Below, in pieces: positions 6,213 to 62,896 of a stretch of DNA of 64,000 nucleotides (within the stretch, counting starts at the first letter, position 1; every line of letters begins with the position of its first letter). This DNA comes from Candidatus Staskawiczbacteria bacterium RIFCSPHIGHO2_01_FULL_39_25 (GTDB lineage Bacteria > Patescibacteriota > Minisyncoccia > Minisyncoccales > Staskawiczbacteraceae). The position numbers and the translations under genes were made by a program. The stretch covers positions 1,958 to 65,957 of the forward strand of contig MHOO01000011.1 of NCBI GenBank assembly GCA_001820095.1, in the 5' to 3' direction. Under the pieces are notes generated by a model. The model ran no database searches. It saw only the letters and a list, made by a program, of their open reading frames with translations, and was not told the DNA's origin.

Positions 6213-6241
6213 TTGACAAGGGTACTTAAATGTGCTAAGAT
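6213..6241 (+). promoter_or_regulatory. sigma70-like promoter (TTGACA-17-TAAGAT)
   Basis: Consensus -35 with 17-nt spacer upstream of the 3D-domain gene. Confidence 0.4.
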
Positions 6242-18198: not shown

Positions 18199-18205
18199 AG
18201 ATGAA

Positions 18206-22753: not shown

Positions 22754-22904
22754 GTTTTTTAATTTCTAATTACTAATTTATAATTTCTATTAAATATCTG
22801 ATACTTTAATTTCTAAACACGACGGGTTTGAAAATTATTTCATTGAAAATTTAATAAAAATTAGAAATTGAAAATTGAAAATTTTAACAGTTTTTATAAA
22901 CAAA

Positions 22905-23552: not shown

Positions 23553-23689
23553 GTTATTGTTAAATTCGAAATTCCAATAGGACCTTACAGGGATGACCTG
23601 CAGGTCAAGCGAAATTCGAAACAATATCTAAATCCTAATGTTCAAATATTTTAAACGCATTTTGAATTTTGGATTTTGGATTTTGGATT

Positions 23690-23735
23690 TGTTTCGGATT
23701 TCGGATTTAGAATTTCGGATTTGAAAAAGTTTCCA
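23690..23735. repeat. TTTGGATTT / TTCGGATTT 8-9-bp tandem repeat
   Basis: ttttggattttggattttggatttgtttcggatttcggatttagaatttcggattt. Confidence 0.7.
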
Positions 23736-27153: not shown

Positions 27154-27159
27154 GCCAAC

Positions 27160-27300
27160 GAATTTTCAATTTTCAATTCCCAATTTTCAATCAATTATCA
27201 ATGAAACGAATTTTCAATGACGAAAACGTTAATTTGATAATTTGGTAATTTAATACTTGATTGATAATTGATACTTGATAATTGATAATTAAAATTTACT
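27160..27300. repeat. TTTTCAATT / TTGATAATT short-period repeat block
   Basis: caattttcaattcccaattttcaatcaattatcaatg ... ttgataattgatacttgataattgataatt; related copies at 42905-42960 (inside ksgA) and 61685-61740. Confidence 0.7.
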
Positions 27301-33154: not shown

Positions 33155-33169
33155 CATTATTAAGAATCT

Positions 33170-33250
33170 GGAATCTTGTATCTTGAAGCTAGAATACGAA
33201 CCGTAAAATTCTATATTCAACATTCCATTCAAGCTACCAGATACAAGATT
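33170..33250. repeat. TAGAATCTGG / ATTCCATTCAAGCTAC repeat block (copy 3)
   Basis: Matches 3895-4012 and 31545-31670. Confidence 0.65.
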
Positions 33251-33315
33251 CTAGATTCATAGTATAGTAAAGTTTGCTTTTTTTCAATTTTTATCGTAAA
33301 ATCATTTAATTAATT

Positions 33316-41258: not shown

Positions 41259-42431
41259 TCATTTATATTTAAGCAATGATCCTATTAAATATTTAGCTAA
41301 GGGGTTTTTAGCTCCCATGACCTGAAAATGCACATGGCATCCTGTTGCCTTTCCGGTTCTTCCCATTAAGCCAATCCTATCGCCTACATTAACCTGATCG
41401 CCGGGTTTTACAAATAACGTGGTAAGGTGTCCGTAATAAGTGACTATCCCCCCAGAATGCAATACGGTAATATGGTTTCCCATCCCCAGGTTCCATTTTC
41501 CATTAGACGCTGTTCTCTGCACCGTTCCCGCGGCCGCAGCATAAATAGGGGTTCCGCACTTATTAGCCACGTCTACGCCGTTATAATAGTGAAGCCCTTG
41601 GCTAATTTGTCCTTCGGCAGGGAAAATAAAGAAACTATCAGCCAACGGAGTGATTCCAATTCCAATAGAGGGAATTAGCTTTTGCGGCATAAAGCCCCCC
41701 GGAACAATTAATATATCCCCAATAAAAATATCCCCTTCGCCACTAAGGCCGTTAAGGGCAACAATGTCCTCGGTTTTTGATTTATATATTTTGCCTAAAT
41801 CACTTATGGTATCGCCGGATTTTACAATATGGAGCAACCCCGAAACTGGCAAGATAACCAGCTTTTGGCCCGTCTTAAGAGTTGAATTTTTAGAAAGGCT
41901 ATTTGCCCAGAGAAGCGTATTCACCGAGACATTAAAGCTTTGGGCAATAGATTCTATGGTATCTCCCGGTTGAACTATGTAATCGGTTACATCTTTTCTC
42001 TCTTGGACCTGTTCAGACCCCCCCATAATAGCTCCCAGGGTTTGCGTAGTCAGCACCCGCGGCGTTGAAATACCATAAACAAAATTATCCTCAATGATCT
42101 TTAAATCAGGGGTTTCACGCACCATGATATTGCTTTGGTCAAAAAAGAGATCGCCAGCATCTGAATTTTCGTTCTCAAAAAAGGAATTAAAAGAGAGCAC
42201 CTCGCCTTCTTTAAAATAGCTTAATCTAGCCAAACTATCTGAACCGGAAAACAATAGGCCTAACAATACCAAAGAAAAAAACCCAAAATAAAAAAGAGGG
42301 TTTTTAAATCTTTTTGAACAAAGAAAGCTGCCTATATTTTTTACCCGGTTAAATAAAATCCTTTGGATTTTAACCCCGCTTTTAGCGGGATTATTTAACT
42401 GGGTGAATTTTTCGTTAAAAAAGGTAAACAA
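41259..42431 (-). CDS. LysM-domain M23-family peptidoglycan metalloendopeptidase
   Basis: Two LysM (YIVQPGDTIESIAQSF; HIVKSGDTISDLGKIY); M23 motifs HYYNGVD and GCHVHFQV. Confidence 0.9.
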   Translation of the reverse strand: MFTFFNEKFTQLNNPAKSGVKIQRILFNRVKNIGSFLCSKRFKNPLFYFGFFSLVLLGLLFSGSDSLARLSYFKEGEVLSFNSFFENENSDAGDLFFDQSNIMVRETPDLKIIEDNFVYGISTPRVLTTQTLGAIMGGSEQVQERKDVTDYIVQPGDTIESIAQSFNVSVNTLLWANSLSKNSTLKTGQKLVILPVSGLLHIVKSGDTISDLGKIYKSKTEDIVALNGLSGEGDIFIGDILIVPGGFMPQKLIPSIGIGITPLADSFFIFPAEGQISQGLHYYNGVDVANKCGTPIYAAAAGTVQRTASNGKWNLGMGNHITVLHSGGIVTYYGHLTTLFVKPGDQVNVGDRIGLMGRTGKATGCHVHFQVMGAKNPLAKYLIGSLLKYK

Positions 42432-43564: not shown

Positions 43565-45931
43565 ATGCGTGATTTTTTCTCATCTATTCTGAAACAAAAA
43601 AAGATACTGTTTTTTATCTTGCTCTTTTTTGTTATCTCGGGAATTTTTTTGCCAAAAACAACATTTGCAATAGAATGGGTGGATAAAATAATAGATTCAA
43701 TAAGATATGCTCCCGAGAGAGTAGCAGCATTCATTGTAATATCATTTATTGCATTGCCAGCTATAACAGCAACATGGATTTTCAGAATGCTTGCTAACAT
43801 GGCGTATGCAACATTTAACTATGTGTTAAGTGAAATGATCCAAGATCCTGGAGATCAATGGGCAATAACTCGTAATCCTGTCTTTCTTGGCAGTTGGAAT
43901 ATTATAAAAAGCTATGCCAACATGTTTATTGTGCTGGGGCTTATTACCATTGCATTAGCCACTATTTTAAAATTTCGTGAAGATTATGGGGCAAAAAAGT
44001 TACTGCCGACACTTATAGGGGTTGCTCTCTTAGTTAATTTTTCCACGGTATTTGTTGGAATCATGATTGATGCATCAAACTTGGTAATGAAACACCTTGT
44101 GGTGGGAGGAGAACAGCAAGGTACTATTATTTCTTCCCTAAATATAGCTCACAACAATATTGTAGATCCATTATATAACCAAGCAATAGCTTCGGCGAGC
44201 GAAGCAAAAGATTGGTATGCCCCAATAGGCATAGGCTTAACCTATATAAGTGCAGAATATATTTTTGCAGCAATATATTTAGCCGTAGCGGTAATATTGT
44301 TTCTAATAACCTTAGTATTTATAGAAAGATATATTATGCTGGCAATTTTATTTATCTTTTCTCCACTAGCTTTTGTAGCTTTTATTTTTCCGGCCACAAA
44401 AAAGTTTTTTAGCAATTGGCTCCATCGTTTCCTTACTGCTTGTTTTTCCGGAGTAATTGCTGCTTTCTTTCTTAAGTTATCAGTAGGCATTCTAACTGTA
44501 TTTTCAACATCTGGTTCTAATATTTTTACCACATTTCAGGGAGAATCAGTTCTAGATACTATGCCGAAAATATGGATGCATCTTCTAATTGTTCAGGGAT
44601 TTTTATTTGCCGGATATAAATCGGCAAAGAAATCAAGTATTGTAGCGACCACAGTGATAGACACTGCAAAAGCTGTTGCTGGCGTAGTGATTGGAGCAAC
44701 TGCCGCAGTTGCCACTGGCGGCGCCTCGGCAGCCTTAAGGGCTACTGGAATTCCTGGAGCTGCACAAAGGGCTAAAGAGGGAATGAGTTATTATGGAACA
44801 AAATTAGCAGAAAGATTTGAGCCTCTTACTGGGGTTAGAAAAGGTACAGCTGATAGAATGAGACAACAAATGTTGCAAAAGCAAGTATCTACATCTGAAT
44901 CTGAAGAAAAAATGTCTGCCATGAGTTCTGAAGAAAGAGTTAAGTTAGCCTCTAAATTTAGAGATAATCGGTTGCTTTCTATAACTCCAGTTGATCCAAC
45001 TAAAATACAAGAAACAGTGGGACTTACAAAAGCTCTATTGAAGAATAAGGAGTTCGGTAATCTTGATAACGCACAACAAAGGCAACTTATTGAATTTATC
45101 AAAAGCAATGCTCCCAGCACAATCTCTATGAAGGAGTTTTCAAAGGTAAATGCTGACTATGGAGCCTACGATACGGATGCAGTTAATCAAGAAAAGAGAA
45201 AACTTATTGGCAAAACTAATCCTCGAACAGGTAACGCATATCTTGAGCATGACATGAATAATCCAAATGCAGCTCAATTTAAAGACATGCAAACTGATGC
45301 TGAAAATACCGTAATCAGAGATGCTTATGCTAAAATGGATGATAGTGAATTTAAGAAAATGAGCAATCAAGATATAGCAACCGAAGCAAAACAAGAAACC
45401 GCAAGAGGCAAACTAGCATTAGAAGAAGCTATAAAAAGAAATATACTTGGCATGGTTGGCAGCTTCGCAGAAACTGCCACACTAATTCAGGGTTCAGAAA
45501 AATATGGTTCAAAGGCCATGTATGAAGCTAAGAAAATTGACCCCAAATATGCTGAATATGATACAAAGGGAATACATGAACAACTTACTAAAAATGGCGT
45601 ACCAAATCCAACAATGGTTCCAACAACATCGCCTGACTTTATTAGAGCCCAACAAGAAGTTAAGTCAAACGCATATAAAAAGCTCACCGCTGGTTCTATT
45701 AGAAAAGACCTCTCTGATGATGCATTTGACTTGGAATTAGTGAAAAATGTCAGCGCTAAAAAGATAAGTGAAGCTAATAAGCAAGAGGGGCTCTCAACTA
45801 AGAAAATTGAAAAACTTAAAGCTTTAGAAGCAGATATCCAAGCAAAAGTATTGAATGCTTATGCAACTGGAAATAACGATGAAGCAGATCAATGGGCAGC
45901 TAAATTAAAAGCGATTAGAGCATTGTCTTAA
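43565..45931 (+). CDS. VirB6/TrbL-like polytopic membrane protein with about 450-aa Lys/Glu/Ala-rich C-terminal domain
   Basis: Signal peptide plus 7-8 TM in first 380 aa; first gene of the cluster containing PrgI-like and VirB4; assignment by topology and context only. Confidence 0.4.
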   Translation: MRDFFSSILKQKKILFFILLFFVISGIFLPKTTFAIEWVDKIIDSIRYAPERVAAFIVISFIALPAITATWIFRMLANMAYATFNYVLSEMIQDPGDQWAITRNPVFLGSWNIIKSYANMFIVLGLITIALATILKFREDYGAKKLLPTLIGVALLVNFSTVFVGIMIDASNLVMKHLVVGGEQQGTIISSLNIAHNNIVDPLYNQAIASASEAKDWYAPIGIGLTYISAEYIFAAIYLAVAVILFLITLVFIERYIMLAILFIFSPLAFVAFIFPATKKFFSNWLHRFLTACFSGVIAAFFLKLSVGILTVFSTSGSNIFTTFQGESVLDTMPKIWMHLLIVQGFLFAGYKSAKKSSIVATTVIDTAKAVAGVVIGATAAVATGGASAALRATGIPGAAQRAKEGMSYYGTKLAERFEPLTGVRKGTADRMRQQMLQKQVSTSESEEKMSAMSSEERVKLASKFRDNRLLSITPVDPTKIQETVGLTKALLKNKEFGNLDNAQQRQLIEFIKSNAPSTISMKEFSKVNADYGAYDTDAVNQEKRKLIGKTNPRTGNAYLEHDMNNPNAAQFKDMQTDAENTVIRDAYAKMDDSEFKKMSNQDIATEAKQETARGKLALEEAIKRNILGMVGSFAETATLIQGSEKYGSKAMYEAKKIDPKYAEYDTKGIHEQLTKNGVPNPTMVPTTSPDFIRAQQEVKSNAYKKLTAGSIRKDLSDDAFDLELVKNVSAKKISEANKQEGLSTKKIEKLKALEADIQAKVLNAYATGNNDEADQWAAKLKAIRALS

Positions 45932-45943
45932 ATTTGGTTAATT

Positions 45944-46447
45944 ATGGAAAAAATTAATAATCAACGAATAGTCTTTAACCTACCAGAAGATACCACAATA
46001 GTTGAAGTTATTGATGAAATTTTGAAAAATAATGGACTTGAGGAAAATAATAAAGAATTCATTAATAAATTAAAACAAGAGAAAGAGCCTAAATTTAGCG
46101 TAGCCAAAGACGCAGCGATAACCCTTGCACAAAAAAAGATCCCTGAAAAAAAGTTAATTGAACTACTGGCAAAACATCTCGAAACTTCTAAAGAAAATGC
46201 TGAAAAAATAGTGCGAGACATTAAGCAAAAACTTATTCCTTATGCTAAAAAAGTACCCACAGAAGAACCACTGAAAAAGAAAGAAATCATTCAGGCCGAA
46301 TCCCAAAAATCTCCCTTGCCTTATAGCAAAAAAATAGAAACCGCTAATGTAGAAGAAAACGCGGAAAAACTACAGAAGGCAAGAACGGTAATTCAGCAGA
46401 AAGAAGAAAGTAAGGGACCGGATTCGTACCGAGAAACTCTTGATTAG
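45944..46447 (+). CDS. hypothetical protein
   Basis: 167 aa, Lys/Glu-rich; no motif. Confidence 0.4.
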   Translation: MEKINNQRIVFNLPEDTTIVEVIDEILKNNGLEENNKEFINKLKQEKEPKFSVAKDAAITLAQKKIPEKKLIELLAKHLETSKENAEKIVRDIKQKLIPYAKKVPTEEPLKKKEIIQAESQKSPLPYSKKIETANVEENAEKLQKARTVIQQKEESKGPDSYRETLD

Positions 46448-46920
46448 GGTTTAGCGTCTAGGGGTTAGGGTATAGACAAAACTAATTAAACGCTAGACTC
46501 CAACACCTAAACCCTAATTCATTATGTATTTAGAATCCTATAAAAAACTCATAGTTTGGCAAAAATCTATTGAATTAGTAAAAAAAGTTTATATTTTAAC
46601 AAGCAACTTTCCACAGAGCGAACTTTATGGAATAACTTCACAAATGAGAAGAGCAGCAATATCTATTCCTTCAAATATAGCCGAGGGATACTCAAGAAAA
46701 AATTTAAAAGAATATTTACAATTTTTAAGAATTTCTTATGGTTCATCAACAGAGTTAGAGACCCAATTAATAATAGCAAAAGATTTATATAAGAACATAC
46801 ACTATAAACCTACCGAGGAACTACTAGAAGAAGTATTAAAAATGTTGAATGTAATGATTAATAAATTAGAAAACAAAAATTAACTAACTAAACGCTATAC
46901 CCTATACGCTAAACCCTAAC
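46444..46920. repeat. inverted-repeat-flanked cassette carrying a four-helix-bundle gene (IR arms about 46444-46522 and 46881-46920)
   Basis: Left ttagggtttagcgtctaggggttagggtatag vs right ctataccctatacgctaaaccctaa (reverse complement). Confidence 0.65.
46524..46883 (+). CDS. four-helix-bundle protein (23S rRNA intervening-sequence protein / Avd-like family)
   Basis: ISIPSNIAEGYSRKNLKEYLQFLRISYGSSTELETQLIIAKDL is the family signature. Confidence 0.8.
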   Translation: MYLESYKKLIVWQKSIELVKKVYILTSNFPQSELYGITSQMRRAAISIPSNIAEGYSRKNLKEYLQFLRISYGSSTELETQLIIAKDLYKNIHYKPTEELLEEVLKMLNVMINKLENKN

Positions 46921-46923
46921 AAT

Positions 46924-47328
46924 ATGTCACAATATCCCATTCCACAATTTATTGAAGAAGAAGGAAAAATTATCTTTTTCCTAACATTCCGGCAATTTTT
47001 TCTGCTTGCAGGAGGAGGAGCTGTTTGCCTTATTATATATTTTCTAGCCCCTTATTCCCTCTTTTTGGGCGCCGCGGCCCTTATTATGATAACGGTTATC
47101 GTCATAGCCTTTGTGAAGGTTCAGAACGCATCCATAGTAACTGTTGTGCTTAATATGCTTGGATTTATGGTAGGTAAAAAAAACTACACCTGGAGTAAAA
47201 GGGGAACAAATGCACGGCCCGAAACAGAAAGAAAGCAAGAATTTAAAAAACCCGTTGAAGTTCCGGCCCCAAAACTACAGCCCAGCAAACTAAGAGCAGC
47301 GCAGAAGATGATAGAGGTGAGGAAGTAA
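46924..47328 (+). CDS. PrgI/VirB3-like small T4SS membrane protein
   Basis: IPQFIEEEGKIIFFLTFRQFFLLAGGGAVCLIIYFL N-terminal pattern with two TM; immediately upstream of VirB4. Confidence 0.5.
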   Translation: MSQYPIPQFIEEEGKIIFFLTFRQFFLLAGGGAVCLIIYFLAPYSLFLGAAALIMITVIVIAFVKVQNASIVTVVLNMLGFMVGKKNYTWSKRGTNARPETERKQEFKKPVEVPAPKLQPSKLRAAQKMIEVRK

Positions 47329-47377
47329 TTATCCTAATTAACCTAATTATTCTAATTGTTCTAATCAAACCCTAATG
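47329..47377. repeat. ATTAG-type repeat arm (rc orientation) ending in ccctaATGtcc, which supplies the start of ORF 47375
   Basis: ttatcctaattaacctaattattctaattgttctaatcaaaccctaatg. Confidence 0.8.
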
Positions 47378-47770
47378 TCCAATGAAAAAAATACAAAATA
47401 CGATTTAGAAGAAAGAACTGCTAAATTCGGAGAAGATATTATAAATTTTGCAAAAATCATTCCAGTAAATCCAGTTACTCAAAGAATTATTCCTCAATTA
47501 GTAGCATCCGGAACTTCTATGGGCTCAAATTACTGTGAAGCAGACGATGCAGAATCTGGCAAAGACTTTAAGCATAAAATAGGAATTTGCAAAAAAGAGG
47601 GCAGAGAAACAAAATACTGGCTAAGGATGATAGCTGCTGCAGTGCCAGCATTAAGAGAAGAAGCACGAGTTTTTTGGCAGGAAGCTAAAGAATTACACTT
47701 AATCTTTAATGCTATTTATCGTAAAGTTAACAAAAAGCCTTTAGAAATTAAAAAATTAAGTATTGATTAG
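47375..47770 (+). CDS. four-helix-bundle protein, second paralog (TIGR02436-like)
   Basis: SGTSMGSNYCEADDAESGKDFKHKIGICKKEGRETKYWLRM matches the 4HB/IVS family pattern; flanked on both sides by ATTAG repeat arms. Confidence 0.65.
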   Translation: MSNEKNTKYDLEERTAKFGEDIINFAKIIPVNPVTQRIIPQLVASGTSMGSNYCEADDAESGKDFKHKIGICKKEGRETKYWLRMIAAAVPALREEARVFWQEAKELHLIFNAIYRKVNKKPLEIKKLSID

Positions 47771-47811
47771 GTAAATTAGATTAATTAGTATAATTAGAAT
47801 AATTTCAAAAC
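47765..47811. repeat. ATTAG-type repeat arm (forward orientation) ending aataatttcaaaacATG, which supplies the start of ORF 47812
   Basis: attaggtaaattagattaattagtataattagaataatttcaaaac; same terminal 27 nt precede ORF 48788. Confidence 0.8.
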
Positions 47812-48486
47812 ATGGAGCCGGCGACACAAGATTTTTTAGAAATTCAAGACATTAGAGAAGGCATTGTGATCTTGAAAAATAACAACATACGGGGGATATT
47901 AATGGTTTCCTCTATTAATTTTGCCTTAAAATCTGACGAGGAGCAGTCAGCCATTATTTATGCCTTCCAGAGTTTTTTAAACTCGCTGGATTTTTCGTGC
48001 CAGATTATCATACAATCCAGAAACATCAATATCACCCCCTACTTAGACAACATTAAAGCATTAGAAGAAAACCAAACGAGCGAGCTCATGAAAGCACAAA
48101 CTGCCTCATACGGAGAATTTATCCGAGAGCTAGTGAAAGGAGACAATGTAATGACAAAAAGCTTTTATGTGGTGGTGCCATATACGTTAGCAGAAATACT
48201 GGGAGTTGGATCTGCGGTAAGCAAATTTAATTTCTCTGAAATGCTAGGATTAGGCAAGAAAAGCAAAGGGGAGAATAAGCCGATAATAAAAGATGAAGAC
48301 TTTGAAAAGTGCAAAAACCAGCTTTGGCAAAGGATGGAATTTGTAGCCATGGGGTTAAAGAGGTGCGGATTAGACGTTATTCCCCTGACCACCCCGGAGT
48401 TGATTGAACTATTTTGGGCAACCCACCACCCCAGTGAAGCAGAAATCGGATACTCGCCGGAAGTAGTGCCAGAACTGCTGAAATAA
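47812..48486 (+). CDS. VirB4-family protein, N-terminal fragment
   Basis: FLEIQDIREGIVILKNNNIRGILMVSSINFALKSDEEQ matches the N-terminal domain of Gram-positive-type VirB4 (TcpF/PrgJ-like); stops at TAA at the first base of a repeat. Confidence 0.6.
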   Translation: MEPATQDFLEIQDIREGIVILKNNNIRGILMVSSINFALKSDEEQSAIIYAFQSFLNSLDFSCQIIIQSRNINITPYLDNIKALEENQTSELMKAQTASYGEFIRELVKGDNVMTKSFYVVVPYTLAEILGVGSAVSKFNFSEMLGLGKKSKGENKPIIKDEDFEKCKNQLWQRMEFVAMGLKRCGLDVIPLTTPELIELFWATHHPSEAEIGYSPEVVPELLK

Positions 48487-48787
48487 TTATTCTAATTGAC
48501 CTAATTTCTAATTGTTCTAATCAAATCCCAATTCCCAAGCCCCAATTCCCAAACGTAATTTGGGAATTAAGGAATTAGGCATTATTTTCTAGCAAGCGAA
48601 GGCAATAAAGATTCACAAATATTTATTGCCAAGCGGCGACGAAAATATGCTTTGCATATTTAGAATAATAGAAATAGGATTTATATAATACGTCGCTCGG
48701 TCGGCATACGTGAAACTGCGGTTTCCCCTATGCCTCCCTTGGCTAGTATTATTAGAGCAATTAGTATAATTAGAATAATTTCAAAAC
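48487..48787. repeat. composite repeat cassette splitting virB4: ATTAG arm, CCCAATTCCCAA repeats, and a 130-bp element (48655-48787) that is the inverted copy of 60153-60285
   Basis: Direct comparison: reverse complement of 48655-48787 matches 60153-60285 at about 97% over about 130 nt. Confidence 0.85.
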
Positions 48788-50590
48788 ATGTCATTTTTTA
48801 GTAAAAAAGAAAATAAGCAAAAAGGAGAAACAGAAGAAAGGTTCTTTGAAGAAGAGACTCTTAATATAAAGGATATTATTGCGCCTCCTTACATCGGGAT
48901 AACCCAGGACCATATTAATTTGGGCGAAAAATTCACCAAATCTTTTTTCATCTTTTCTTATCCTAGGTATTTAAACACAGGCTGGCTTTCCCCCGCTATT
49001 AACCTCAATGTCCCTATGGACATATCTTTTTTCATCCATCCCGTTAACAGTGAATTGATTTTAAAAAAATTAAGGTCAAAAATTACCCAAGTTTCCTCTG
49101 AATTAATGGAGCGGCAGGAAAAGGGGTTAATCCGCGATCCGGCGCTTGAAACCGGCTACCAGGACATTGAAACCTTAAGAGATAAGATAATTACTGCCCA
49201 GGAAAAAATGTTCCGGTTTGGGCTTTATATTACCGTATACCGGGACAATGCGGAACAAATGCGGGAAGTAGAATCAACTCTGCGGTCAATTTTTGAATCC
49301 CGACTAATCTATATAAAGCCCGCCCTATTCAAACAAAAAGAAGGGTTTATTTCCACCAGCCCCTACGGAATGGATTTGCTTTCGGTCCACATTCCTATGA
49401 ACACCGAACCGCTTTCCACCACCTTTCCATTTACGTCATTTGATTTAAGCTCTAACGAGGGAATTTTATACGGCATTAATGGCCACAATAATTCTTTGGT
49501 ATTATTTGACCGTTTTACCTTAGAAAACTCCAACATGGTGGTTTTTGCCAAGTCAGGATCCGGGAAATCATACGCCATAAAGCTGGAAATATTGAGATAC
49601 CTAATGTGGGGAGTTGATGTGATTGTTATTGACCCTGAAAATGAATATGAATTTTTGGCTGATGGAGTGGGAGGAGATTTCTTTAAGATATCACTAACAT
49701 CAGATTACCACGTAAACCCTTTTGACTTGCCAGTGCCAGGGCCCGATGACAGCGTAGATGACATTTTGCGGTCAAACGTAATAAATTTAGTGGGATTGTT
49801 AAGAATTATGCTAGGCGGATTGACGCCGGAAGAAGACAGCATCTTAGACCAAGCCCTTACCGAAACTTACGCCATACGGGATATTACCCCCCAATCTGAC
49901 CCTGCTACCTGGCAGGAAAATATACCGGTAATGTCTGACTTTGCGGAAATTTTAGAAAATATGACCGGAGCTGAATCCTTAGCCAGGCGCCTTAAAAAAT
50001 TCACCCAGGGAACGTTTGCGGGATTTTTTAATAGAAAATCAAATATTACGATTGAAAAAAACTTTATTGTGTTTGGCATACGGGATATGGAAGAATCTTT
50101 AAAACCCATTGCCCTGTTTATGGTCATGCGCTACGTATGGAATATCATCAGGAGCACGGTAAAAAAGAGGATTCTGGTTATTGATGAAGCCTGGTGGCTG
50201 ATGCAATCAGAAGATGGAGCTTCATTCTTGTTTGGCTTGGTAAAAAGGGGCAGAAAATATTGGCTGGGGGTAACTACCATAACCCAAGACATAGAAGATT
50301 TTATGAAGTCTTCATATGGCAAAGCCATTATTACCAATTCTTCGCTGCAGCTTTTGTTAAAACAGTCTCCGGCGGCTCTTGACGTACTGCAAACCACCTT
50401 TGACTTAACCGAACAGGAAAAAACACTTTTATTGGATGCCAATGTGGGAGAAGGCCTTTTCTTTGCCGGAAAAAAGCATGTCTATATCGGCGTAAAAGCC
50501 AGCTACACCGAAGACCAGATTATAACTACCAGCCCCGGGGAGGTTGAAAAAATCAGGGAGGCAAGGAAAAAATTACAACAACAGCAGTAA
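48788..50590 (+). CDS. VirB4/TrbE/CagE-family T4SS ATPase, C-terminal (ATPase) part
   Basis: IAPPYIGIT...FFIFSYPRYLNTGWL; Walker A FAKSGSGKSYAIK; Walker B VIDEAWWLM; 600 aa. Confidence 0.85.
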   Translation: MSFFSKKENKQKGETEERFFEEETLNIKDIIAPPYIGITQDHINLGEKFTKSFFIFSYPRYLNTGWLSPAINLNVPMDISFFIHPVNSELILKKLRSKITQVSSELMERQEKGLIRDPALETGYQDIETLRDKIITAQEKMFRFGLYITVYRDNAEQMREVESTLRSIFESRLIYIKPALFKQKEGFISTSPYGMDLLSVHIPMNTEPLSTTFPFTSFDLSSNEGILYGINGHNNSLVLFDRFTLENSNMVVFAKSGSGKSYAIKLEILRYLMWGVDVIVIDPENEYEFLADGVGGDFFKISLTSDYHVNPFDLPVPGPDDSVDDILRSNVINLVGLLRIMLGGLTPEEDSILDQALTETYAIRDITPQSDPATWQENIPVMSDFAEILENMTGAESLARRLKKFTQGTFAGFFNRKSNITIEKNFIVFGIRDMEESLKPIALFMVMRYVWNIIRSTVKKRILVIDEAWWLMQSEDGASFLFGLVKRGRKYWLGVTTITQDIEDFMKSSYGKAIITNSSLQLLLKQSPAALDVLQTTFDLTEQEKTLLLDANVGEGLFFAGKKHVYIGVKASYTEDQIITTSPGEVEKIREARKKLQQQQ

Positions 50591-52206
50591 TGTGTTACAA
50601 TTGTAATAATATGCAAATGCCAAAAAAATATAAAAAAGTTATTGTTGTACTGATCTTTATAGCTGTTATATTACCGCAAAGTACCTTGATTTTGGCATCG
50701 GAGGTAAACTACCCTCCCATTCCAGGAGCTCCTAGCCCCACCGATTTATTTTCATATATTGCCTACTTTATTACGTTTGCCGTAGTTGCAGCCGGGATAA
50801 TGGGGGTGGTATCTATTGTTATTGCGGGAATTAAGATATTGATCAATGCGGGCAGCCCGGCGGCAATAGGCGACGCAAAAGACAGAATTTTTGGCGCCAT
50901 TTTAGGGATCATCCTTTTAATGGCCTCTTTTATAATTCTGCGAACTATCAATGCGGAATTAGTTAATGAAAGAACGATTGCCCCAGACCTTAAAGCAGGC
51001 GCTGTTTATTATACTGTTAGTTCTGGCCTTAATGAAGATGGGGAGCTTTATATACAAGCGCCAGAAGCAGAGTCAAACACTGCTAATATACCACAACCAT
51101 ATGACACAATTTACTATTACTGCGAAGGCAATCCGGCAAATTATAGAAATCTTTTAGTGTGGGTATATAACGATTTTAACTTTCAGATAGATCGAAATAA
51201 AAATGGAGGCGCTGATGTTAATACTATTGTATTACCATGCAATCAAGGCACCCCCATATTAGACACTATCCTTTCTTTTAAAAGAAGCTACGAATACCCG
51301 GGAATTTATCTCTATCTTACCAATAAATGCACGGGCGTTAGTTCCCCCTCTCTAACACTAAGTGGTGATGTGCCCCGTTTTGATGCTCAAGCAAATAAAG
51401 AACAAAGACCTAAATCATTAAGAATTGTTAATGGAAAGGACCCCCGCCAAATATATGGAGTTATTTTTAATAAAAACCCTAAATTTACCGGGGAGTGTAC
51501 GCGGGTAGTATGGAATCCACAGCCAAATATTGAAAGTGAGTGCATAATTTTAGATGGGCAAGATGCTAAACCAAATGTATTCTTGACTGAAGAAAAATTT
51601 CTCCCCGAATCAATGTATGTAGTAAATTTTGATATAGATCTTGGACCAAGAGCAGGTGGCAGTATTGAGCTTTATAGTAAAGATTATATAGCGAGAATCC
51701 CGCAAAAAGCTGGCCCCAGCAATACTACCTCAGTAGGAACTGATGCTCAAAGGAATGCTGCTTTTGATATTGGCAATGTATTGCACATAAAAAATCCGGT
51801 GGAAGGTCAACCCACCCCAGATGCGTTGCTAAGAAAACCATTTTTTAAGGGGATAGGAGTAAGGTTTACGGCTACATACCCAGACACCGTAGAAGAAAGC
51901 TATGCTAATGGCAGTAGTGTGGGAGCCCGCTACTATGAGTATGGTTCGGCAACGACGCCCATAAACGGACAATATGAAAATTATCCTGAGGGAGGTGGAG
52001 GTGCCCAGTGCAATGATTATGACTATGAATGCATACGTAAGATAAAACATAATGGAACTTACTATACTATTTTTTATGCTCATAATAATTTGATCGGGGG
52101 TGAAGTTTGTGTAGTTAATACTAAATCAACTAATTTGCGCGATACTAAAATATTAGATAATAATAAAGTGATAACGGAGATAACTATAATTCCCACCACT
52201 CCCTAA
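50590..52206 (+). CDS. secreted/membrane protein: N-terminal T4SS-pilin-like domain fused to about 400-aa Cys/Gly/Asn-rich extracellular domain
   Basis: After the signal peptide, FITFAVVAAGIMGVVSIVIAGIKILINAGSPAAIGDAKDRIFGAILGIILLMASFIIL aligns by eye with the pilin ORF 33415; start more likely ATG 50611 (MQMPKKYKK). Confidence 0.5.
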   Translation: MCYNCNNMQMPKKYKKVIVVLIFIAVILPQSTLILASEVNYPPIPGAPSPTDLFSYIAYFITFAVVAAGIMGVVSIVIAGIKILINAGSPAAIGDAKDRIFGAILGIILLMASFIILRTINAELVNERTIAPDLKAGAVYYTVSSGLNEDGELYIQAPEAESNTANIPQPYDTIYYYCEGNPANYRNLLVWVYNDFNFQIDRNKNGGADVNTIVLPCNQGTPILDTILSFKRSYEYPGIYLYLTNKCTGVSSPSLTLSGDVPRFDAQANKEQRPKSLRIVNGKDPRQIYGVIFNKNPKFTGECTRVVWNPQPNIESECIILDGQDAKPNVFLTEEKFLPESMYVVNFDIDLGPRAGGSIELYSKDYIARIPQKAGPSNTTSVGTDAQRNAAFDIGNVLHIKNPVEGQPTPDALLRKPFFKGIGVRFTATYPDTVEESYANGSSVGARYYEYGSATTPINGQYENYPEGGGGAQCNDYDYECIRKIKHNGTYYTIFYAHNNLIGGEVCVVNTKSTNLRDTKILDNNKVITEITIIPTTP

Positions 52207-52270
52207 AATTTTGTATCCACCAAAAAACCACCGATTTTGACTCGGTGGTTTTTTGATTGGTATATTTTTA

Positions 52271-53574: not shown

Positions 53575-53904
53575 TTATATTTTTTTAAAGAATTTTGCGA
53601 TAGCCGCCTGTATTTCTAGAAACTCTTTCTTATTGATTTGAGGCAACGCAATAATAACTACATCTGCCGGTTTTTTCAGATTTTTCAATTCATAAAAAGC
53701 TGCGTCCCTTAATCTTCTCTTAATTTTATTCCTTTGGGTAGCTTTGGAGGAAACTTTCTTGCTTACGATAAAGCCGAAACGGCCTTCTGGCAAATGATTT
53801 CCCATTGACTTGCATACCAAAAAATCATTTTTTATAGTTTCCCCCCTTTTAAAGACGGCATCAAAATCCTTTTTCTTAGTTAATCGGTTAATTTTGGGCA
53901 ACAA
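53575..53904 (-). CDS. rnpA: RNase P protein component
   Basis: LPKINRLTKKKDFDAVFKRG and KATQRNKIKRRLR RnpA signatures; listed ORF to 53952 uses a TTG inside the ATTAG repeat; the TTG at about 53901-53904 gives the canonical N-terminus. Confidence 0.85.
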   Translation of the reverse strand: MLPKINRLTKKKDFDAVFKRGETIKNDFLVCKSMGNHLPEGRFGFIVSKKVSSKATQRNKIKRRLRDAAFYELKNLKKPADVVIIALPQINKKEFLEIQAAIAKFFKKI

Positions 53905-53912
53905 CTTAAATG

Positions 53913-54057
53913 AATTCCTAATTATTCTAATTGCTCTAATTATTCTAATCAAATCCTAACTTCTAATGTCTAATTTATAAAAAATACTTATTCATTGGGA
54001 TTTGAGTATTGGGGCTTGATTAGGTTAATTAGAAATTAGGTTAATTAGTATAATTCC
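53913..54057. repeat. ATTAG-type 9-bp-periodic inverted repeat pair (rc arm 53913-53975; forward arm 54020-54057)
   Basis: cctaattattctaattgctctaattattctaatcaaatcctaacttctaatgtc ... cttgattaggttaattagaaattaggttaattagtataatt. Confidence 0.8.
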
Positions 54058-54060: not shown

Positions 54061-54195
54061 TTATACCGCTAATTTCTTCCTTCCCTTTGCTCTCCTTCTT
54101 TGGATAACCTGCCTGCCTTTTTTAGTTTGTGCGCGTTTTAGGAAGCCATGGGTCCTTTTTCTCTTTTTCTTTTTTGGTTTATAGGTAAAACTCAT
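54061..54195 (-). CDS. rpmH: 50S ribosomal protein L34
   Basis: Hand translation [44 protein letters not shown] (44 aa); not in the supplied ORF list. Confidence 0.9.
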
Positions 54196-54575
54196 AATTA
54201 AATTGTATTTAATATTAATTTTAGTATAATATGGCTAGTATAGTACAAAATAGGCCCTTGGTCAAACCATATTTTAATTTGAAATTTGAAATATTTTACA
54301 TTGAATTCAAATGGCCTAAATTTCAAATTTCAAATTCATCGGTATTGTGCGTCTAAATAGAAACATATCACACAAATTATCCACAGTTTAACCACAGTTG
54401 TTCTTATTTTACCCTAATTTGACAAAGGGTTAATAAATAGAAAAAATACACTATTAAGTAATACTCACCTAATTCAAGATAAGTGAAAATGTATTTCACT
54501 TATCTGTTAGACCTATTGCGTAATAAGGTTTGTAGTATAAAAACTTATTACGCAACAGGTCTATTGTTTGTAATT
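54196..54575. other. putative oriC part 1 (rpmH-dnaA intergenic) with DnaA box TTATCCACA at 54377-54385 and a 17-bp perfect hairpin at 54510-54561
   Basis: Canonical rpmH-dnaA position; AT-rich; consensus DnaA box; AAATTTCAAATT repeats at 54285-54340. Confidence 0.6.
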
Positions 54576-55934
54576 ATGGAAAATACTGAGCTATGGCAAT
54601 CGGTGTTAGCACAAATGCAGCTTCATATCTCTAAGGCAAACTTTGCGACGTGGTTTCAAAACACCGGGATTGCGCTTAAGGAAAATGAAAAAGTGATTAT
54701 TTCCGTCCCCAATGCTTTTTCTAAAGAGTGGCTTAGTAATAAGTACTACAAATTAATGTTAAAGATAATGCATGATATAGATGCCACCATTAAAGAATTG
54801 GAATTTACCATTAATCCCCAATCATTAAAAGCTCTCGTAGTTAAAGAGGCGGCAGATACCGCGAAGATAGACATAGAACAGCTTAAATTTGATGAGTTTA
54901 AAATCAACAAAGAAACCAACCTCAATCCTCGCTACACGTTTGAAAATTTTGTCGTAGGCTCATTCAATGAGCTGCCTTGCGCTGCGGCCCTGGCGGTTTC
55001 CGAAAACCCCGGCTATGCCTATAACCCCCTTTTTATTTACGGAGGCGTGGGGTTAGGCAAAACCCACCTCATACAGGCCATTGGCAACCAAATAGCCAAC
55101 GATCCTAAAAAAAAGAAGGTAAGGTACATGCCTTCTGAAAAGCTGGTGTCGGGCATTGTGGCGGCCATTAGAAGCAATAGCATGGAATCCTTTAAGGCCA
55201 GCTTGGCTCCCATAGATGTATTAATTATTGATGATATTCAATTCATTGCGGGAAAAAATAAAAGCCAGGAAGAGTTTTTTCATGTGTTCAATTCTTTGTA
55301 TGAAAAAAACAAACAGATTATTCTTTCTTCTGATAGGCCGCCGAACGCCATACCAGAGCTAGAAGAACGGCTAAGATCAAGGTTGGGAGGCGGTATGACG
55401 ATTGACGTAAGCCTGCCAGATTATGAAACCAGATTGGCGATACTTAAAACAAAGCTTCAAGAAAAAAATATAAAACTGCCAGAAGATGTGCTAGAATATA
55501 TAGCTTCTAATGTAAAAAAGAACGTACGGGAGCTGGAAGGAGCCCTCAATAGCCTATTAATTTACTATAAAATCAATAACAACATCCCCAACTTGGAAAT
55601 TGCTAAAAAACTGTTAAAAGGTTTTGTGTTTTCTCCTTTTGACGTGGCAAACTATAAAAAAATAATTGAAACAGTAGCTAAATTTTACAACCTAGAAGAA
55701 AAAAATCTTTTTGACTCAACAAGGCGGAAAGAAATTGTAAGGCCCCGCCAGGTAGCAATGTTTTTACTAAGAAAGGAGTTAAAATATTCTTTTCCCGCCA
55801 TTGCCAGAAAATTCGGCGGCAAAGACCATACCACGGTGATTTACGCTTACAAAAAAATCCTCCGCGAGTCAGAAGAAAACAACAAATTAACCGATGAATT
55901 AAACTTAATAAAGCAGAGAGTATATAGTGGATAA
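54576..55934 (+). CDS. dnaA: chromosomal replication initiator DnaA
   Basis: Walker A GGVGLGKTHL; DnaA box-binding C-terminal domain (RPRQVAMFLLRKELKYSFPAIARKFGGKDHTTVIYAYKKI); listed ORF starts at 54483, ATG 54576 (MENTELW) after the hairpin is preferred. Confidence 0.95.
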   Translation: MENTELWQSVLAQMQLHISKANFATWFQNTGIALKENEKVIISVPNAFSKEWLSNKYYKLMLKIMHDIDATIKELEFTINPQSLKALVVKEAADTAKIDIEQLKFDEFKINKETNLNPRYTFENFVVGSFNELPCAAALAVSENPGYAYNPLFIYGGVGLGKTHLIQAIGNQIANDPKKKKVRYMPSEKLVSGIVAAIRSNSMESFKASLAPIDVLIIDDIQFIAGKNKSQEEFFHVFNSLYEKNKQIILSSDRPPNAIPELEERLRSRLGGGMTIDVSLPDYETRLAILKTKLQEKNIKLPEDVLEYIASNVKKNVRELEGALNSLLIYYKINNNIPNLEIAKKLLKGFVFSPFDVANYKKIIETVAKFYNLEEKNLFDSTRRKEIVRPRQVAMFLLRKELKYSFPAIARKFGGKDHTTVIYAYKKILRESEENNKLTDELNLIKQRVYSG

Positions 55935-56170
55935 CCCACATAATAACTTGCATATTAAAAAAATAAAAAATATATACCATTATTATTACCTGCCCTATTT
56001 ATATTTTTTTTAACTACACTATCCACAGGTTATTTTTAAAAAAATTAAGGACAAATTAAAATAAAATTTTAATAAAAAATTCATAAAATACGCGAGCTAA
56101 TAACAATAATAAGTTTTAATATATTAATAACTATTGTTAAAAATTAATAACCTGAAAAAAGAAAAGGAAT
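55935..56170. other. putative oriC part 2 / DNA unwinding element (dnaA-dnaN intergenic, extremely AT-rich)
   Basis: About 85% AT; partial DnaA box TATCCACAG at about 56010. Confidence 0.5.
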
Positions 56171-59999: not shown

Positions 60000-60203
60000 T
60001 TATTCTTCTTCGTCGGCCGCTACTTCATCGTCATCATCCTCTTCATCGTCTGCTTCATCATCCTTAACCTCTTCCTCTTCATTGCCATCGTCGTAATCAT
60101 CAAAGTCGTCTACTTGGCTGATAACATTGAGAAATTCCTCTTCCATTTTTTGAATTATTCTAATTATTCTAATTGCTCTAATAATACTAGCCAAGGGAGG
60201 CAT
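60000..60203 (-). CDS. small highly acidic protein (about 60% Asp/Glu)
   Basis: ATG at 60203 lies in the 130-bp inverted-repeat element (MPPLASIIRAIRIIRII); internal ATG at 60146 (MEEEFLNV) is an alternative start. Confidence 0.4.
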   Translation of the reverse strand: MPPLASIIRAIRIIRIIQKMEEEFLNVISQVDDFDDYDDGNEEEEVKDDEADDEEDDDDEVAADEEE

Positions 60204-60370
60204 AGGGGAAACCGCAGTTTCACATATGCCGACCGAGCGACGTATTATATAAATCCTATTTCTATTATTCTAAATAATAACTAATGTCTAATTTCTAAAA
60301 ACTTTTGGCATTAGGATTTAGGATTTGATTAGGTCAATTAGTATAATTAGGTTAATTAGACTAATTTATT
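60147..60370. repeat. composite repeat: ATTAG arm, 130-bp element 60153-60285 (inverted copy of 48655-48787), ATTAG arms to 60370
   Basis: See feature 48487-48787. Confidence 0.85.
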
Positions 60371-60960: not shown

Positions 60961-61697
60961 AGCGAAAATTTCAAATTAGAGTATATATCCTGTATGGCGT
61001 CGTTTTCATCTAGCGCCTCAAAAAGCTTTTCAGCTTTTTCTTTATCCTTGCCGCTTATTTCGATTTCTTCTTTGGCAACCCAATCCAGCGACGCAGACTG
61101 AATTTTCAGCTGTTTTTCTTCCAATGCCTTTTTTATTTTTTCTAAGTCTTCCGGCTTGGTATAAATGGCCAGCATGTTCTCTTGCCAGCGCACGTCTTCT
61201 GCCCCAGCTTCTATGGCCAGCAGCTCAAGGGTCTCTTTTGCTCCTTGGTTTTCGGGCACCATAATAGCGCCCTTCCTATCAAACATCCATTTTACTGCCC
61301 CTTCTCCGGCTATCTTGCCTTCATGCTGGCTTAAAATGCTCTTTACATCTCCTAATGTCCTATTTTTATTGTCAGTAATGCCCTCCATAATAATAGAAAA
61401 ACCTCCGGGGCCGAATCCTTCAAAAGATACCTCTTCCAGGCTTTCACCTGCCAATTCTCCCGTGCCTTTTTTAATAGCCCTTTCAATGTTTTCTTTGGGC
61501 ATATTAAATTCTTTGGCTTTTTCTATGGCAGCCTTCAATTGAATATTGCTGGCAGCATCAGGCCCCTTTTCTTTTACAGCAATAGTAATAACCCTTCCCA
61601 TTTTGGAAAAGATTTTCCCTTTCTTGGCATCATTAGCGTTTTTGGTTGCTGCGACTGTTTTAAAATGGCTATGACCGGACATACTACGAATTTTCAA
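60957..61697 (-). CDS. YebC/PmpR-family transcriptional regulator
   Basis: MSGHSHFKTV..KKGKIFSKMGRVITIAVKEKG family N-terminus; 246 aa. Confidence 0.85.
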   Translation of the reverse strand: MKIRSMSGHSHFKTVAATKNANDAKKGKIFSKMGRVITIAVKEKGPDAASNIQLKAAIEKAKEFNMPKENIERAIKKGTGELAGESLEEVSFEGFGPGGFSIIMEGITDNKNRTLGDVKSILSQHEGKIAGEGAVKWMFDRKGAIMVPENQGAKETLELLAIEAGAEDVRWQENMLAIYTKPEDLEKIKKALEEKQLKIQSASLDWVAKEEIEISGKDKEKAEKLFEALDENDAIQDIYSNLKFSL

Positions 61698-61880
61698 TTT
61701 TCAATTTACAATTTTCAATAAGTAGGTGTCGAAATTTTCACAATAGGGTCGCGAGATTTATCCGCTTTAGCGGAAAATCCCGACCTAGGAAAATTTCGAC
61801 GGATTTAATTATTTCAAATTGAATAATTTCAAATTGATTTCAAATGGCCTAAATTTCAAATTTCAAATTGATTTTCCACC
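61685..61880. repeat. mixed short-period repeats (TTTTCAATT block; GGGTCGCGAGA hairpin copy c at 61746-61789; AAATTTCAAATT block)
   Basis: Copies elsewhere: 27160-27300, 42905-42960, 12049-12087, 15206-15248, 54285-54340. Confidence 0.7.
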
Positions 61881-62896
61881 TTTTTCTTTTTGAGTTTTAA
61901 ATTTATTATTAAAACTGCTGATGCGGAAACTATGGCTAAAGTAATGGCGGTTAAAAATAAGAGCCATGGATCTGACATTCCTTTTCCCAGTGGCGCACTT
62001 AATAATGAGCCCGCAGAATCTCCTATTGATGGCCCAGCTGCCGCCAATGCCAGGTTGCCCGCATTACTCTTATCAGATTTTTTGTTTTCTGGCAATATTT
62101 GGGTAATTTTATTTGCGGCGCCAGGCGTTAAGGTGCTGCTCCACTGCCAGCCGGATGCTGTGCCATTATAAGATTGGTTTTTTGGAGCATTCTGGTAAGA
62201 AGCCGAACTGACAATTTTTCCATTAGGCAAAATTAAATCTAGGCTGTCTTGGTCATTGTTTAGCGTGATGTTTGTTGCGGGCCTTTTTAACACCAAATAT
62301 CCCTTGCCCAATATGGTTATATTTTTGGGAAAAGTATATTCAGTGAGCGCTCCCTGGCTGTCTTTAATTTTCCAGCCCCCCATATCAACATCAAAGCTAT
62401 TGGCATTATACAATTCAATCCATTCGCTCGTATCATCCGGCCCTTCTGGCGCCGGCAGAATTTCATTAATCACAATACCGCCAGGATATATTATAGTATC
62501 GGGCGCCGGGCTTGCTTCTAGCTTTGGCGCGCTAGATACCACATTATTTTGTTCTTGGACGGGCGGGCTGGAATTTTCTACTTGAGCCGATGGTTCCGCT
62601 CCCGTGGTCTCGCCGGAGCTTTTAGCAGAGTCAGATCCCAAAACATAAGCCAATCCCTGGTCTTTTATTTTTTGTAATGTTTTTTCTCCAATGCCTTTCA
62701 CCCTCAATAAGTCATCAACTGATGAAAACGGCCTGGCGTCTACTATCCTTTGCGCTATGGTAGGCCCAACTCCTGTTAGCTCTTCTAATTGAGGTAGCGA
62801 GGCAGTATTGATCTCAACTTTATCTGCTGCAAAAACAAAAAGCGAAGCAAGCAATAAAACAAGGAATGTCAGCAAAACTTTCTTCATCTTTTTCAT
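61856..62896 (-). CDS. ComEA-like helix-hairpin-helix DNA-binding domain fused to a lamin-tail domain, with C-terminal TM anchor
   Basis: HhH: LEELTGVGPTIAQRIVDARPFSSVDDLLRVKGIGEKTLQKI; lamin-tail domain: GGIVINEILPAPEGPDDTSEWIELYNANSFDVDMGGWKIKD. Confidence 0.7.
   Translation of the reverse strand: MKKMKKVLLTFLVLLLASLFVFAADKVEINTASLPQLEELTGVGPTIAQRIVDARPFSSVDDLLRVKGIGEKTLQKIKDQGLAYVLGSDSAKSSGETTGAEPSAQVENSSPPVQEQNNVVSSAPKLEASPAPDTIIYPGGIVINEILPAPEGPDDTSEWIELYNANSFDVDMGGWKIKDSQGALTEYTFPKNITILGKGYLVLKRPATNITLNNDQDSLDLILPNGKIVSSASYQNAPKNQSYNGTASGWQWSSTLTPGAANKITQILPENKKSDKSNAGNLALAAAGPSIGDSAGSLLSAPLGKGMSDPWLLFLTAITLAIVSASAVLIINLKLKKKKVENQFEI

Follow-up and report, generated by a model that had tools for sequence, protein, structure and literature searches.

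Within a 64,000-nucleotide stretch of the genome of Candidatus Staskawiczbacteria bacterium RIFCSPHIGHO2_01_FULL_39_25 (the window), we found that the gene cluster at 43565–52206 is very probably the local copy of a lineage-wide Patescibacteria type IV secretion system (T4SS) that is chromosomally fixed, without a relaxase and derived from the MPF-FATA systems. It comprises an extended VirB6, a PrgI/VirB3 protein, a VirB4 made of two polypeptides, one pilin-headed protein and a 167-residue protein, ORF167. An initial annotation, made from the sequence alone, had read the cluster as a T4SS-type set of membrane proteins, pilin and ATPase, and this kind of machine is borne out by matches above cutoff to PF04610, PF12666 and NF045971. 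The composition of the system and its position close to dnaA have already been published (Wang et al. 2023; Quinonero-Coronel et al. 2025, PMC12102498), and the features that the initial annotation found remarkable are all contained in the second of these descriptions; the result is the correct identification of a known system. Three cassettes that interrupt the operon look like mobile elements of the intervening-sequence (IVS) type adapted to operon junctions.

The closest described systems are those of other Patescibacteria. Transposon sequencing showed that Southlakia epibionticum needs its T4SS locus SEML1_0006–0019 to grow as an epibiont (Wang et al. 2023, PMC10633639). This locus is similar to the conjugative systems of Gram-positive bacteria, has essential pilins and is without recognisable relaxase or coupling proteins (PMC10633639), and a FEMS review likewise lists the homologous locus, including pilins, as essential for epibiotic growth (PMC12857230). 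A survey of the Patescibacteria described a monophyletic VirB4 clade related to MPF-FATA, with TrsD as the commonest virB4-associated component, with VirB3/PrgI, VirB6 and VirB2-like pilins near virB4, and with relaxases almost absent (PMC12102498). In Paceibacteria and other classes these systems often lie near dnaA, dnaN, rnpA, ksgA and rpmH, which the authors read as a gene-dosage effect (PMC12102498). The window shares with these systems VirB4 and a separate TrsD, VirB3/PrgI, VirB6 and a putative VirB2-like pilin domain, the lack of a nearby relaxase or coupling protein, and the chromosomal, origin-proximal site beside dnaA, dnaN, rnpA, rpmH and ksgA. It differs in having one 538-residue pilin fusion where the others have an array of short pilins, and in possessing additionally the lineage-specific 167-residue gene and the three inserted cassettes.

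Components of the secretion system

The open reading frames (ORFs) of the initial annotation lie on the forward strand of 43565–52206 as annotated, but this strand holds eight ORFs and not five genes in a row. The VirB4-family ATPase (48788–50590, + strand; 600 residues) corresponds to the C-terminal two thirds of a canonical VirB4, and its translation contains both the Walker A (FAKSGSGKS) and the Walker B (VIDEAWW) motif that had been reported. Its assignment to the VirB4 family is upheld by NCBIfam NF045971 (CD1110-family VirB4; 349.8 bits, cutoff 325) and PF19044 (E 6e-27), and it also matches the VirB4 C-domain structure PDB 4AG5 (E 4.6e-42). Homologues fall into >120 clusters of Patescibacteria proteins, all of about 600 residues and with 77–89% identity, and a protein of Candidatus Staskawiczbacteria bacterium RIFCSPLOWO2_01_FULL matches the window ORF at 100% identity.

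The counterpart of the VirB4 N-terminal domain has a gene of its own, encoding a TrsD-like protein (47812–48486, + strand; 224 residues) that the initial annotation left unnamed. This protein aligns to N-terminal positions of three VirB4 models, among them 2–119 of the CD1110 model and 105–233 of the Mbov_0397 model, and scores 33.8 bits against TrsD NF041427; all its model matches are under the full-length cutoffs. Its orthologues in relatives carry PF26593 (TraC-like). The 224- and 600-residue proteins jointly span a complete VirB4. The TrsD-like gene adjoins virB4 in 74 loci, and the junction is compact (<60 nt) in 58 of them. We considered that one of the cassettes, now lying between the two genes, had cut a formerly single virB4, and rejected this. 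The split reads as ancestral, because all VirB4 homologues have about 600 residues and the junction is cassette-free in 58 of the 74 loci.

Upstream, the 788-residue protein at 43565–45931 (+ strand) is an extended VirB6-like polytopic membrane protein. Its match to TrbL/VirB6 (PF04610) lies just over the cutoff (27.1 against 25.9 bits), and the best Protein Data Bank sequence for its family profile is TrwI (E 1e-3). In an AlphaFold2 model (alignment of 55 sequences; mean predicted local distance difference test score, pLDDT, 86), about seven long transmembrane helices extend to approximately residue 383 and are followed by a disordered linker and a C-terminal domain (about 440–788). This domain consists of many short helices forming an all-alpha helical repeat with pLDDT >90. 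The long coiled-coil tail of the initial annotation is therefore rejected; the model gives a compact multi-helix domain instead. Extended VirB6 proteins carry an added large hydrophilic C-terminal domain (PMC12857230), and the window protein is alike in this respect when set beside R388 TrwI and Agrobacterium VirB6, with which it shares 13% sequence identity. Its tail differs from theirs, being a helical-repeat domain of about 350 residues.

Two further components are encoded between VirB6 and the motor. The PrgI/VirB3-like protein (46924–47328, + strand; 134 residues) has two transmembrane helices in a hydrophobic segment at residues 16–78 and passes the PF12666 cutoff (32.6 against 27 bits). 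ORF167 (45944–46447, + strand) is hydrophilic, lies between VirB6 and PrgI, and matches nothing at the curated score cutoffs of Pfam, NCBIfam or PHROG. It is a lineage-conserved accessory gene, with orthologues at this position in other Staskawiczbacteria loci. Small membrane ORFs flank VirB6 and VirB4 in one relative (L001); the window has none.

The last gene of the cluster encodes a putative pilin-headed surface protein (50590–52206, + strand; 538 residues), with a predicted signal peptide, a VirB2-like two-helix membrane hairpin and a cysteine-rich ectodomain. The ectodomain, about 400 residues of beta structure with a beta-gamma-crystallin-like module, contains several cysteines that are invariant or nearly so, a pattern that fits an extracellular disulfide-bonded domain. 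In the AlphaFold2 model the signal helix is followed by two long helices, 53–85 and 90–120, resembling the VirB2 hairpin. Precomputed matches to T4SS_pilin (PF18895) exist in three homologues (P0124, P0128 and P0131), with a weak one in the L001/L002 orthologue. In several relatives (L012, L014, L015, L018–L025 and L050), one to four tandem pilin-headed paralogues stand 3' of VirB4, some of them several-fold longer (ORFs up to about 6 kb), where the window has its one 538-residue copy. The operon likely ends at a terminator-like GC hairpin (52214–52262) where the pilin-fusion gene and jag converge; its 21-nt arms are 86% complementary and enclose a loop of 7 nt, and T/A runs stand on either side. 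A promoter and terminator scan of the operon gave no excess over shuffled sequences.

Compared with the Gram-positive MPF-FATA systems (pGO1 TrsD/TrsE, the VirB4 CD1110 of a C. difficile conjugative transposon and pCF10 PrgH/PrgI/PrgJ), the window has CD1110 as the best model of its VirB4, a separate TrsD-like N-domain as in pGO1, a PrgI-family VirB3 and, as in those systems, no outer-membrane core components. It differs in having no relaxase, coupling protein or adhesin, and in having a putative VirB2-like pilin domain, a part which the Gram-positive systems are without. Moreover, the Gram-positive systems are mobile elements, whereas the window holds a vertically inherited chromosomal locus. 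The earlier statement that no relaxase, VirD4, VirB8–11 or integrase accompanies the cluster agrees with our Pfam scan of 37 window ORFs (8 from the cluster, 9 from its flanks and 20 from 1–39544, together most of the larger ORFs), which yielded no relaxase, coupling protein, integrase, reverse transcriptase or transposase.

Several points weigh against the identification as a Patescibacteria T4SS. Membership in the published Patescibacteria VirB4 clade is no more than probable, going by 77–89% identity to Patescibacteria proteins and an MPF-FATA family as best model. No VirB8-like or VirB1-like component was demonstrated within the cluster, and the negative for relaxase and coupling protein covers the 64-kb window, so that either may lie elsewhere in the genome. 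The pilin-like N-terminus that the initial annotation saw in the last gene is matched weakly by PF18895, at 19.5 bits and under the cutoff of 26.6, and the AlphaFold2 model of this protein, built from 11 sequences, is moderate (mean pLDDT 67). The filament, its cargo and the direction of transport are entirely inferred.

A conserved locus beside the predicted origin

The initial annotation had placed the cluster directly beside rpmH–rnpA–yidC–jag and dnaA, and the gene order of the window agrees. It had also taken the cluster for accessory DNA inserted there, and the comparison with relatives contradicts this. We scanned one genome per species, giving 80 loci and a comparison with about 78 species-level Paceibacteria relatives. 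PrgI, TrsD and VirB4 are adjacent in nearly all 80 loci, and in most Paceibacteria loci ksgA lies 5' of the cluster and jag–yidC–rnpA–dnaA 3' of it. The gene tables of two relatives (a contig carrying P0020, and L001/L002) read, in the 5' part, LysM/M23 peptidase, ksgA, (small ORF), VirB6-like protein, ORF, PrgI and TraC-like N-domain, and in the 3' part VirB4, (small ORF), pilin-domain protein, jag, yidC, rnpA, rpmH, dnaA, dnaN and penicillin-binding protein (PBP). The cluster is thus conserved and not island-like: order and site are identical in most relatives. Its GC content (0.34–0.41) is unremarkable against the range of the window (0.34–0.46).

Identities between the window and five relatives (L001, L003, L006, L009 and L010) reach 81–86% for VirB4, close to the 82–87% of DnaA, and are 70–74% for DnaN and 69–75% for TrsD. 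They fall to 39–55% for PrgI, 30–39% for ORF167, 25–33% for VirB6 and 30–33% for the pilin fusion. Since the gene order is conserved and VirB4 is conserved like DnaA, we regard the locus as vertically inherited core DNA and not as accessory DNA. The steep gradient points to a strongly constrained motor alongside rapidly diverging envelope and surface parts, and within one operon it fits host-specific diversification of the exposed parts.

How the machine might work can be proposed from published relatives. The TrsD/VirB4 ATPase would dock on PrgI and VirB6 and power the steps by which the VirB2-like hairpin of the pilin-fusion protein is extracted and polymerised. The product would be a filament or tube at the cell surface, touching the host cell with its fast-evolving, disulfide-rich ectodomain, and the machine would move macromolecules between epibiont and host rather than conjugate DNA. 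Tube-like structures have been described between the cells of a cultivated relative and those of its host (bioRxiv 10.64898/2026.06.21.733656). A LysM and M23 peptidoglycan peptidase (41259–42431, − strand; PF01551 and PF01476), with orthologues at the same position in relatives, is possibly a VirB1-type wall-opening helper, its membership of the system being uncertain; M23/LysM VirB1-like proteins are associated with virB4 in Paceibacteria (PMC12102498).

Two other accounts of the cluster have to be weighed. One holds that a conjugative element or plasmid, of the MPF-FATA type found in Gram-positive bacteria, integrated near the origin and is now decaying, which would account for the missing relaxase and coupling protein and for the interrupting cassettes. 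The best model of VirB4 is indeed from such an element family (CD1110, from a Clostridioides conjugative transposon), horizontal transfer from monoderm conjugative systems in the distant past has been inferred (PMC12102498), and the operon does contain insertions. We consider this account extremely improbable, as location and gene order are alike in most of the relatives, a synteny that largely refutes it, and VirB4 is conserved like DnaA. In addition, every gene is intact and shows no GC anomaly, the scanned ORFs include no integrase, relaxase or att-like boundary, and the homologous locus is essential in Saccharibacteria.

The other account makes the cluster a DNA-uptake (competence-type) T4SS, comparable to Helicobacter ComB and the archaeal Ced system, acting with the ComEA-like helix-hairpin-helix protein at 61856–62896, to which the initial annotation had tied it. 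That protein does have an HHH_3 (ComEA-type) domain together with a lamin-tail domain, VirB4 shows weak matches to CedB and CedD models (52 and 18 bits, far under the cutoffs), T4SS loci of the ABY1 class co-localise with comF, recG and radA (PMC12102498), and the organism presumably has to import nucleotides. The tie itself has no support: the ComEA-like gene lies 9.6 kb off in the opposite orientation, flanked by yebC and ruvB, and on its near side PBP, ruvC and yebC keep their order in a relative. Deletion of comEC in Southlakia ends competence and not viability, whereas the T4SS is essential (PMC12857230), so the two are functionally separable. We judge DNA uptake unlikely; host attachment, the other role that the initial annotation proposed, may apply.

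The surroundings of the cluster are consistent with its origin-proximal position. The rpmH gene lies at 54061–54195 and matches to the DnaA box lie at 54377 (perfect, TTATCCACA), 54388, 55926 and 56019, and AT-rich tandem repeats and DnaA boxes flank dnaA (54377–54396, 55926–56027 and 56039–56151). The position of rpmH and the DnaA-box matches fit an origin flanking dnaA, and the predicted oriC is likely some 2–4 kb away from where the T4SS operon ends. The rnpA ORF as called (53575–53952, − strand) starts at a TTG within a palindromic element, and its N-terminus, MIRIIRAIRIIR, is translated repeat; the true start is probably downstream, giving about 108 residues as in relatives. The other scanned ORFs are housekeeping genes or unassigned, and include FtsH, IF-2, sigma-70, RNase Y, ClpP, trigger factor, PPase and NusA as well as the CCA enzyme, PNPase, a ComM-like protein, PBP, RuvC, YebC and RuvB. 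The window also carries 18 tRNA genes at 2045–33920, in several small clusters, which is unusually tRNA-dense for a small genome.

Hairpin cassettes at the gene junctions

The cluster had been described as interrupted by repeat cassettes and two Avd-like four-helix-bundle (4HB) genes, and we found three repeat-bounded cassettes and two genes of PF05635. Cassette 1 (46444–46919) is bounded by inverted arrays of TTAGGGT-type heptamers, with arms at 46444–46475 and 46888–46919 that are 84% complementary and form a terminal stem in the predicted fold. Its left end overlaps the TAG stop codon of ORF167, and its right end lies 4 nt before the ATG of PrgI. The cargo is 4HB-1 (46524–46883, + strand; 119 residues), which matches PF05635 (23S rRNA IVS protein) with 124.5 bits and TIGR02436 with 122 bits. 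Relatives of cassette 1 occur at other junctions in L001, L007 and L010. The left arm consists of telomere-like TTAGGGT units (TTAGGGTTTAGCGTCTAGGGGTTAGGGTATAG), probably by coincidence.

Cassette 2 (47326–47805) belongs to a family built on the 9-mer CTAATTNNN, with arms at 47327–47376 and 47755–47804 that are 80% complementary. It starts on the TAA stop codon of PrgI and ends 6 nt before the ATG of TrsD, and its cargo is 4HB-2 (47375–47770, + strand; 131 residues; PF05635 41.1 bits, TIGR02436 62 bits). The heptamer unit is wholly unlike the 9-mer family in sequence and alike in architecture. Cassette 3 (48484–48780) is a hairpin of the 9-mer family without an ORF, starting on the TAA stop codon of TrsD and ending 7 nt before the ATG of VirB4. 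Its arms are 88–95% identical to those of cassette 2 and its fold has a z-score of −5.96; the sequences upstream of the TrsD and VirB4 ATGs are identical at 31 of 37 nt (38 of 40 counting the ATG). All three cassettes fold with a long closing stem at minimum free energy, with arms of 32–50 nt in cassettes 1 and 2.

In the loop of cassette 3 lies a structured module of about 70 nt (48676–48750, + strand) that is near-identical to 60178–60262 (− strand) and includes …CGTCGCTCGGTCGGCATAYGTGAAACTGCGGTTTCCCCTATGCCTCCCTTGGCTAG. Each copy points to the downstream gene (VirB4 and PBP) and folds into a modest hairpin, with z-scores of only −1.7 and −2.2. No further copy occurs in 82 related loci, and Rfam gave no match up to E=5 in 46400–48800. 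The reading of the 4HB genes as Avd proteins of a diversity-generating retroelement was rejected, as NF033474 scores 20 bits against a cutoff of 80, bAvd PF22296 scores 27 against 40, and there is no reverse transcriptase among the scanned ORFs.

Beyond the cluster, the window contains many further hairpins, and such elements fill a large share of its intergenic spacers. The 9-mer motif has 19 matches in the window and none in shuffled sequences, and at least six copies of the 9-mer family lie within the 64 kb. Its ORF-less elements stand upstream of ftsH (1–141), between ABC ATPase and permease genes (18200–18355), between rpmH and rnpA (53915–54052) and between the PBP and ruvC regions (60150–60370). 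Heptamer-array hairpins occupy the junctions of RNase Y and ClpP (22745–22895), ClpP and trigger factor (23600–23730), PPase and NusA (27150–27300), the CCA enzyme and tRNA-Arg (33150–33275), and yebC and the comEA-like gene (61680–61880).

Comparison with relatives indicates that the cassettes inserted later, in an operon that is compact apart from them. In 53 of 71 relatives PrgI and TrsD meet at a compact junction, and so do TrsD and VirB4, as given above, in most loci; the empty spacers are AT-rich and 1–25 nt long. An element of about 480 nt with 9-mer arms and a 4HB-2 gene is found at the PrgI–TrsD junction in the window, upstream of PrgI in L004 and at the TrsD–VirB4 junction in L013; the three copies have about 84% mean column identity and unrelated flanks. 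On the 7.8-kb contig of L007, two 489-nt copies of the heptamer/4HB-1 type (3014–3502 and 6090–6578) are 100% identical, one at the PrgI–TrsD junction and one after VirB4, and each starts with TGA and ends on the ATG of the next gene. At the PrgI–TrsD junction of L001 (8690–9230) there is instead a GxxExxY/PDDEXK_3 gene (TIGR04256, 110 bits) closed by CGCGGAA-type inverted arrays, so that hairpin cassettes are not confined to a single kind of small cargo gene. Long stems flank 4HB genes in many further relatives, and the 9-mer motif is present in only 4 of 82 loci. Neither a transposase nor a clear target-site duplication was found for the cassettes.

A different explanation would make the cassettes vertically inherited regulatory hairpins, such as attenuators or RNA-processing sites, with the 4HB genes as ordinary operon members. 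Many housekeeping junctions of the window do hold hairpins, 4HB genes recur in T4SS clusters across classes, and no transposase is visible among the scanned ORFs. Vertical inheritance is nevertheless difficult to reconcile with junctions that are empty in most relatives, with one element at three different junctions of three genomes between unrelated flanks, with two perfectly identical copies in L007, with a motif so narrowly confined among loci, and with arms that are shared by ORF-less derivatives. Regulatory hairpins are therefore an unlikely explanation, and insertion is the one we prefer. Selection on the stem of the sense RNA, which would appear as a G–U asymmetry, was not supported either: for 8 of 12 window hairpins the more stable fold is that of the antisense and not of the sense strand (Wilcoxon p 0.02), the opposite of expectation.

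How tightly the cassettes go with the T4SS depends on where one looks. Loci centred on VirB4 hold 33 4HB genes, of which 31 fall within the T4SS cluster; this cluster accounts for 54% of the sequence (binomial p 6e-7, which takes no account of phylogeny). For the converse view we scanned a metagenome collection with the 4HB-2 subfamily (alignment A6), because the wide alignment of 30 4HB sequences (A5) was too divergent. In this 4HB-centred sample T4SS genes are nearby in only 9 of all 80 loci and, among the 49 loci that span 4 kb or more, in only 6. We estimate that about 2–3% of loci would be T4SS-adjacent in a genome of about 0.8 Mb; 6 of 49 is several-fold above this, and some of the 4HB-centred loci are clearly outside the Candidate Phyla Radiation (CPR). 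The two samples together argue for enrichment and not for an exclusive association, and specificity of the 4HB cassettes for the T4SS operon is rejected as stated. In the same sample, 35 of 38 4HB genes stand shortly 3' of a co-directional gene and 22 of 38 between two co-directional genes, a placement that fits promoter-less cargo relying on host transcription. Three CPR-like metagenome loci carry 4HB-2-type cassettes in other settings: between giant predicted surface proteins in L109 (2574–9797) and L161 (917–11183), and, in L123, with a polytopic membrane protein on one side and a large, repetitive one on the other. Cell-surface operons may be a common home of cassettes of this type.

Relation of the cassettes to known elements

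The nearest parallel in cargo is the IVS of 23S rRNA in Leptospira and Coxiella; PF05635 ORFs are also known from rRNA insertions in CPR (PMC11270868). The window cassettes share with these the cargo family PF05635/TIGR02436, the long terminal stem that closes the element and the sporadic distribution. The rRNA elements lie inside rRNA helices, whereas the window cassettes stand between protein-coding genes and abut stop and start codons; there is no rRNA in the window. The arms also differ, being built of tandem 7- or 9-nt units in the window. Excision from the transcript by RNase III, a mark of the IVS, is for the window cassettes a putative trait, and the strand comparison gave no support for selection specific to the sense RNA.

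A second parallel is in dispersal. Palindromic repeats of the type of miniature inverted-repeat transposable elements (MITEs) or REPINs (Correia, REP/RAYT and RUP elements) are short and dispersed, have inverted-repeat ends and lack an internal transposase. The window elements are alike in being dispersed with inverted ends and in having many ORF-less copies at gene junctions and at non-homologous sites. They differ in that some members of the family hold a gene for a small protein (4HB, or, in L001, GxxExxY) and in their periodic arms, and no partner transposase was identified for the window elements. Our searches of the literature on MITEs in CPR, PF05635, GxxExxY and IVS proteins yielded nothing on such cassettes, and the T4SS survey does not mention them (PMC12102498).

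Whether the cassettes amount to a so-far undescribed class of small CPR mobile elements, 130–490 nt long, bounded by inverted tandem arrays of 7- or 9-nt units, inserted in stop/start spacers and carrying IVS-type cargo, we regard as an evenly balanced question. In such a class, insertion would be precise, into a spacer of a few nucleotides, with the ends supplying or overlapping the stop codon and the ATG context. Full-length forms would carry a PF05635 four-helix bundle or GxxExxY/PDDEXK_3, the classical cargo of rRNA IVS, and the cassettes would be the protein-operon counterpart of the 23S rRNA IVS. Their several-fold enrichment in T4SS operons may reflect tolerance, or a role in uncoupling gene expression.

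The T4SS itself is one more instance of the published lineage-wide system. What the analysis adds to it are corrections: the locus belongs to the core genome and is no accessory DNA, two genes share the VirB4 function, and the tail of VirB6 forms a helical repeat. The contrast between a motor conserved like DnaA and envelope and surface parts at about 30% identity supports a role in host contact. If the reading of the cassettes is confirmed, the proteins named for the 23S rRNA IVS would be tied to a mobile hairpin element that settles at operon junctions as well, which would give a tractable handle on the role of the abundant four-helix-bundle genes and would show how tiny, streamlined genomes tolerate selfish insertions in essential operons.

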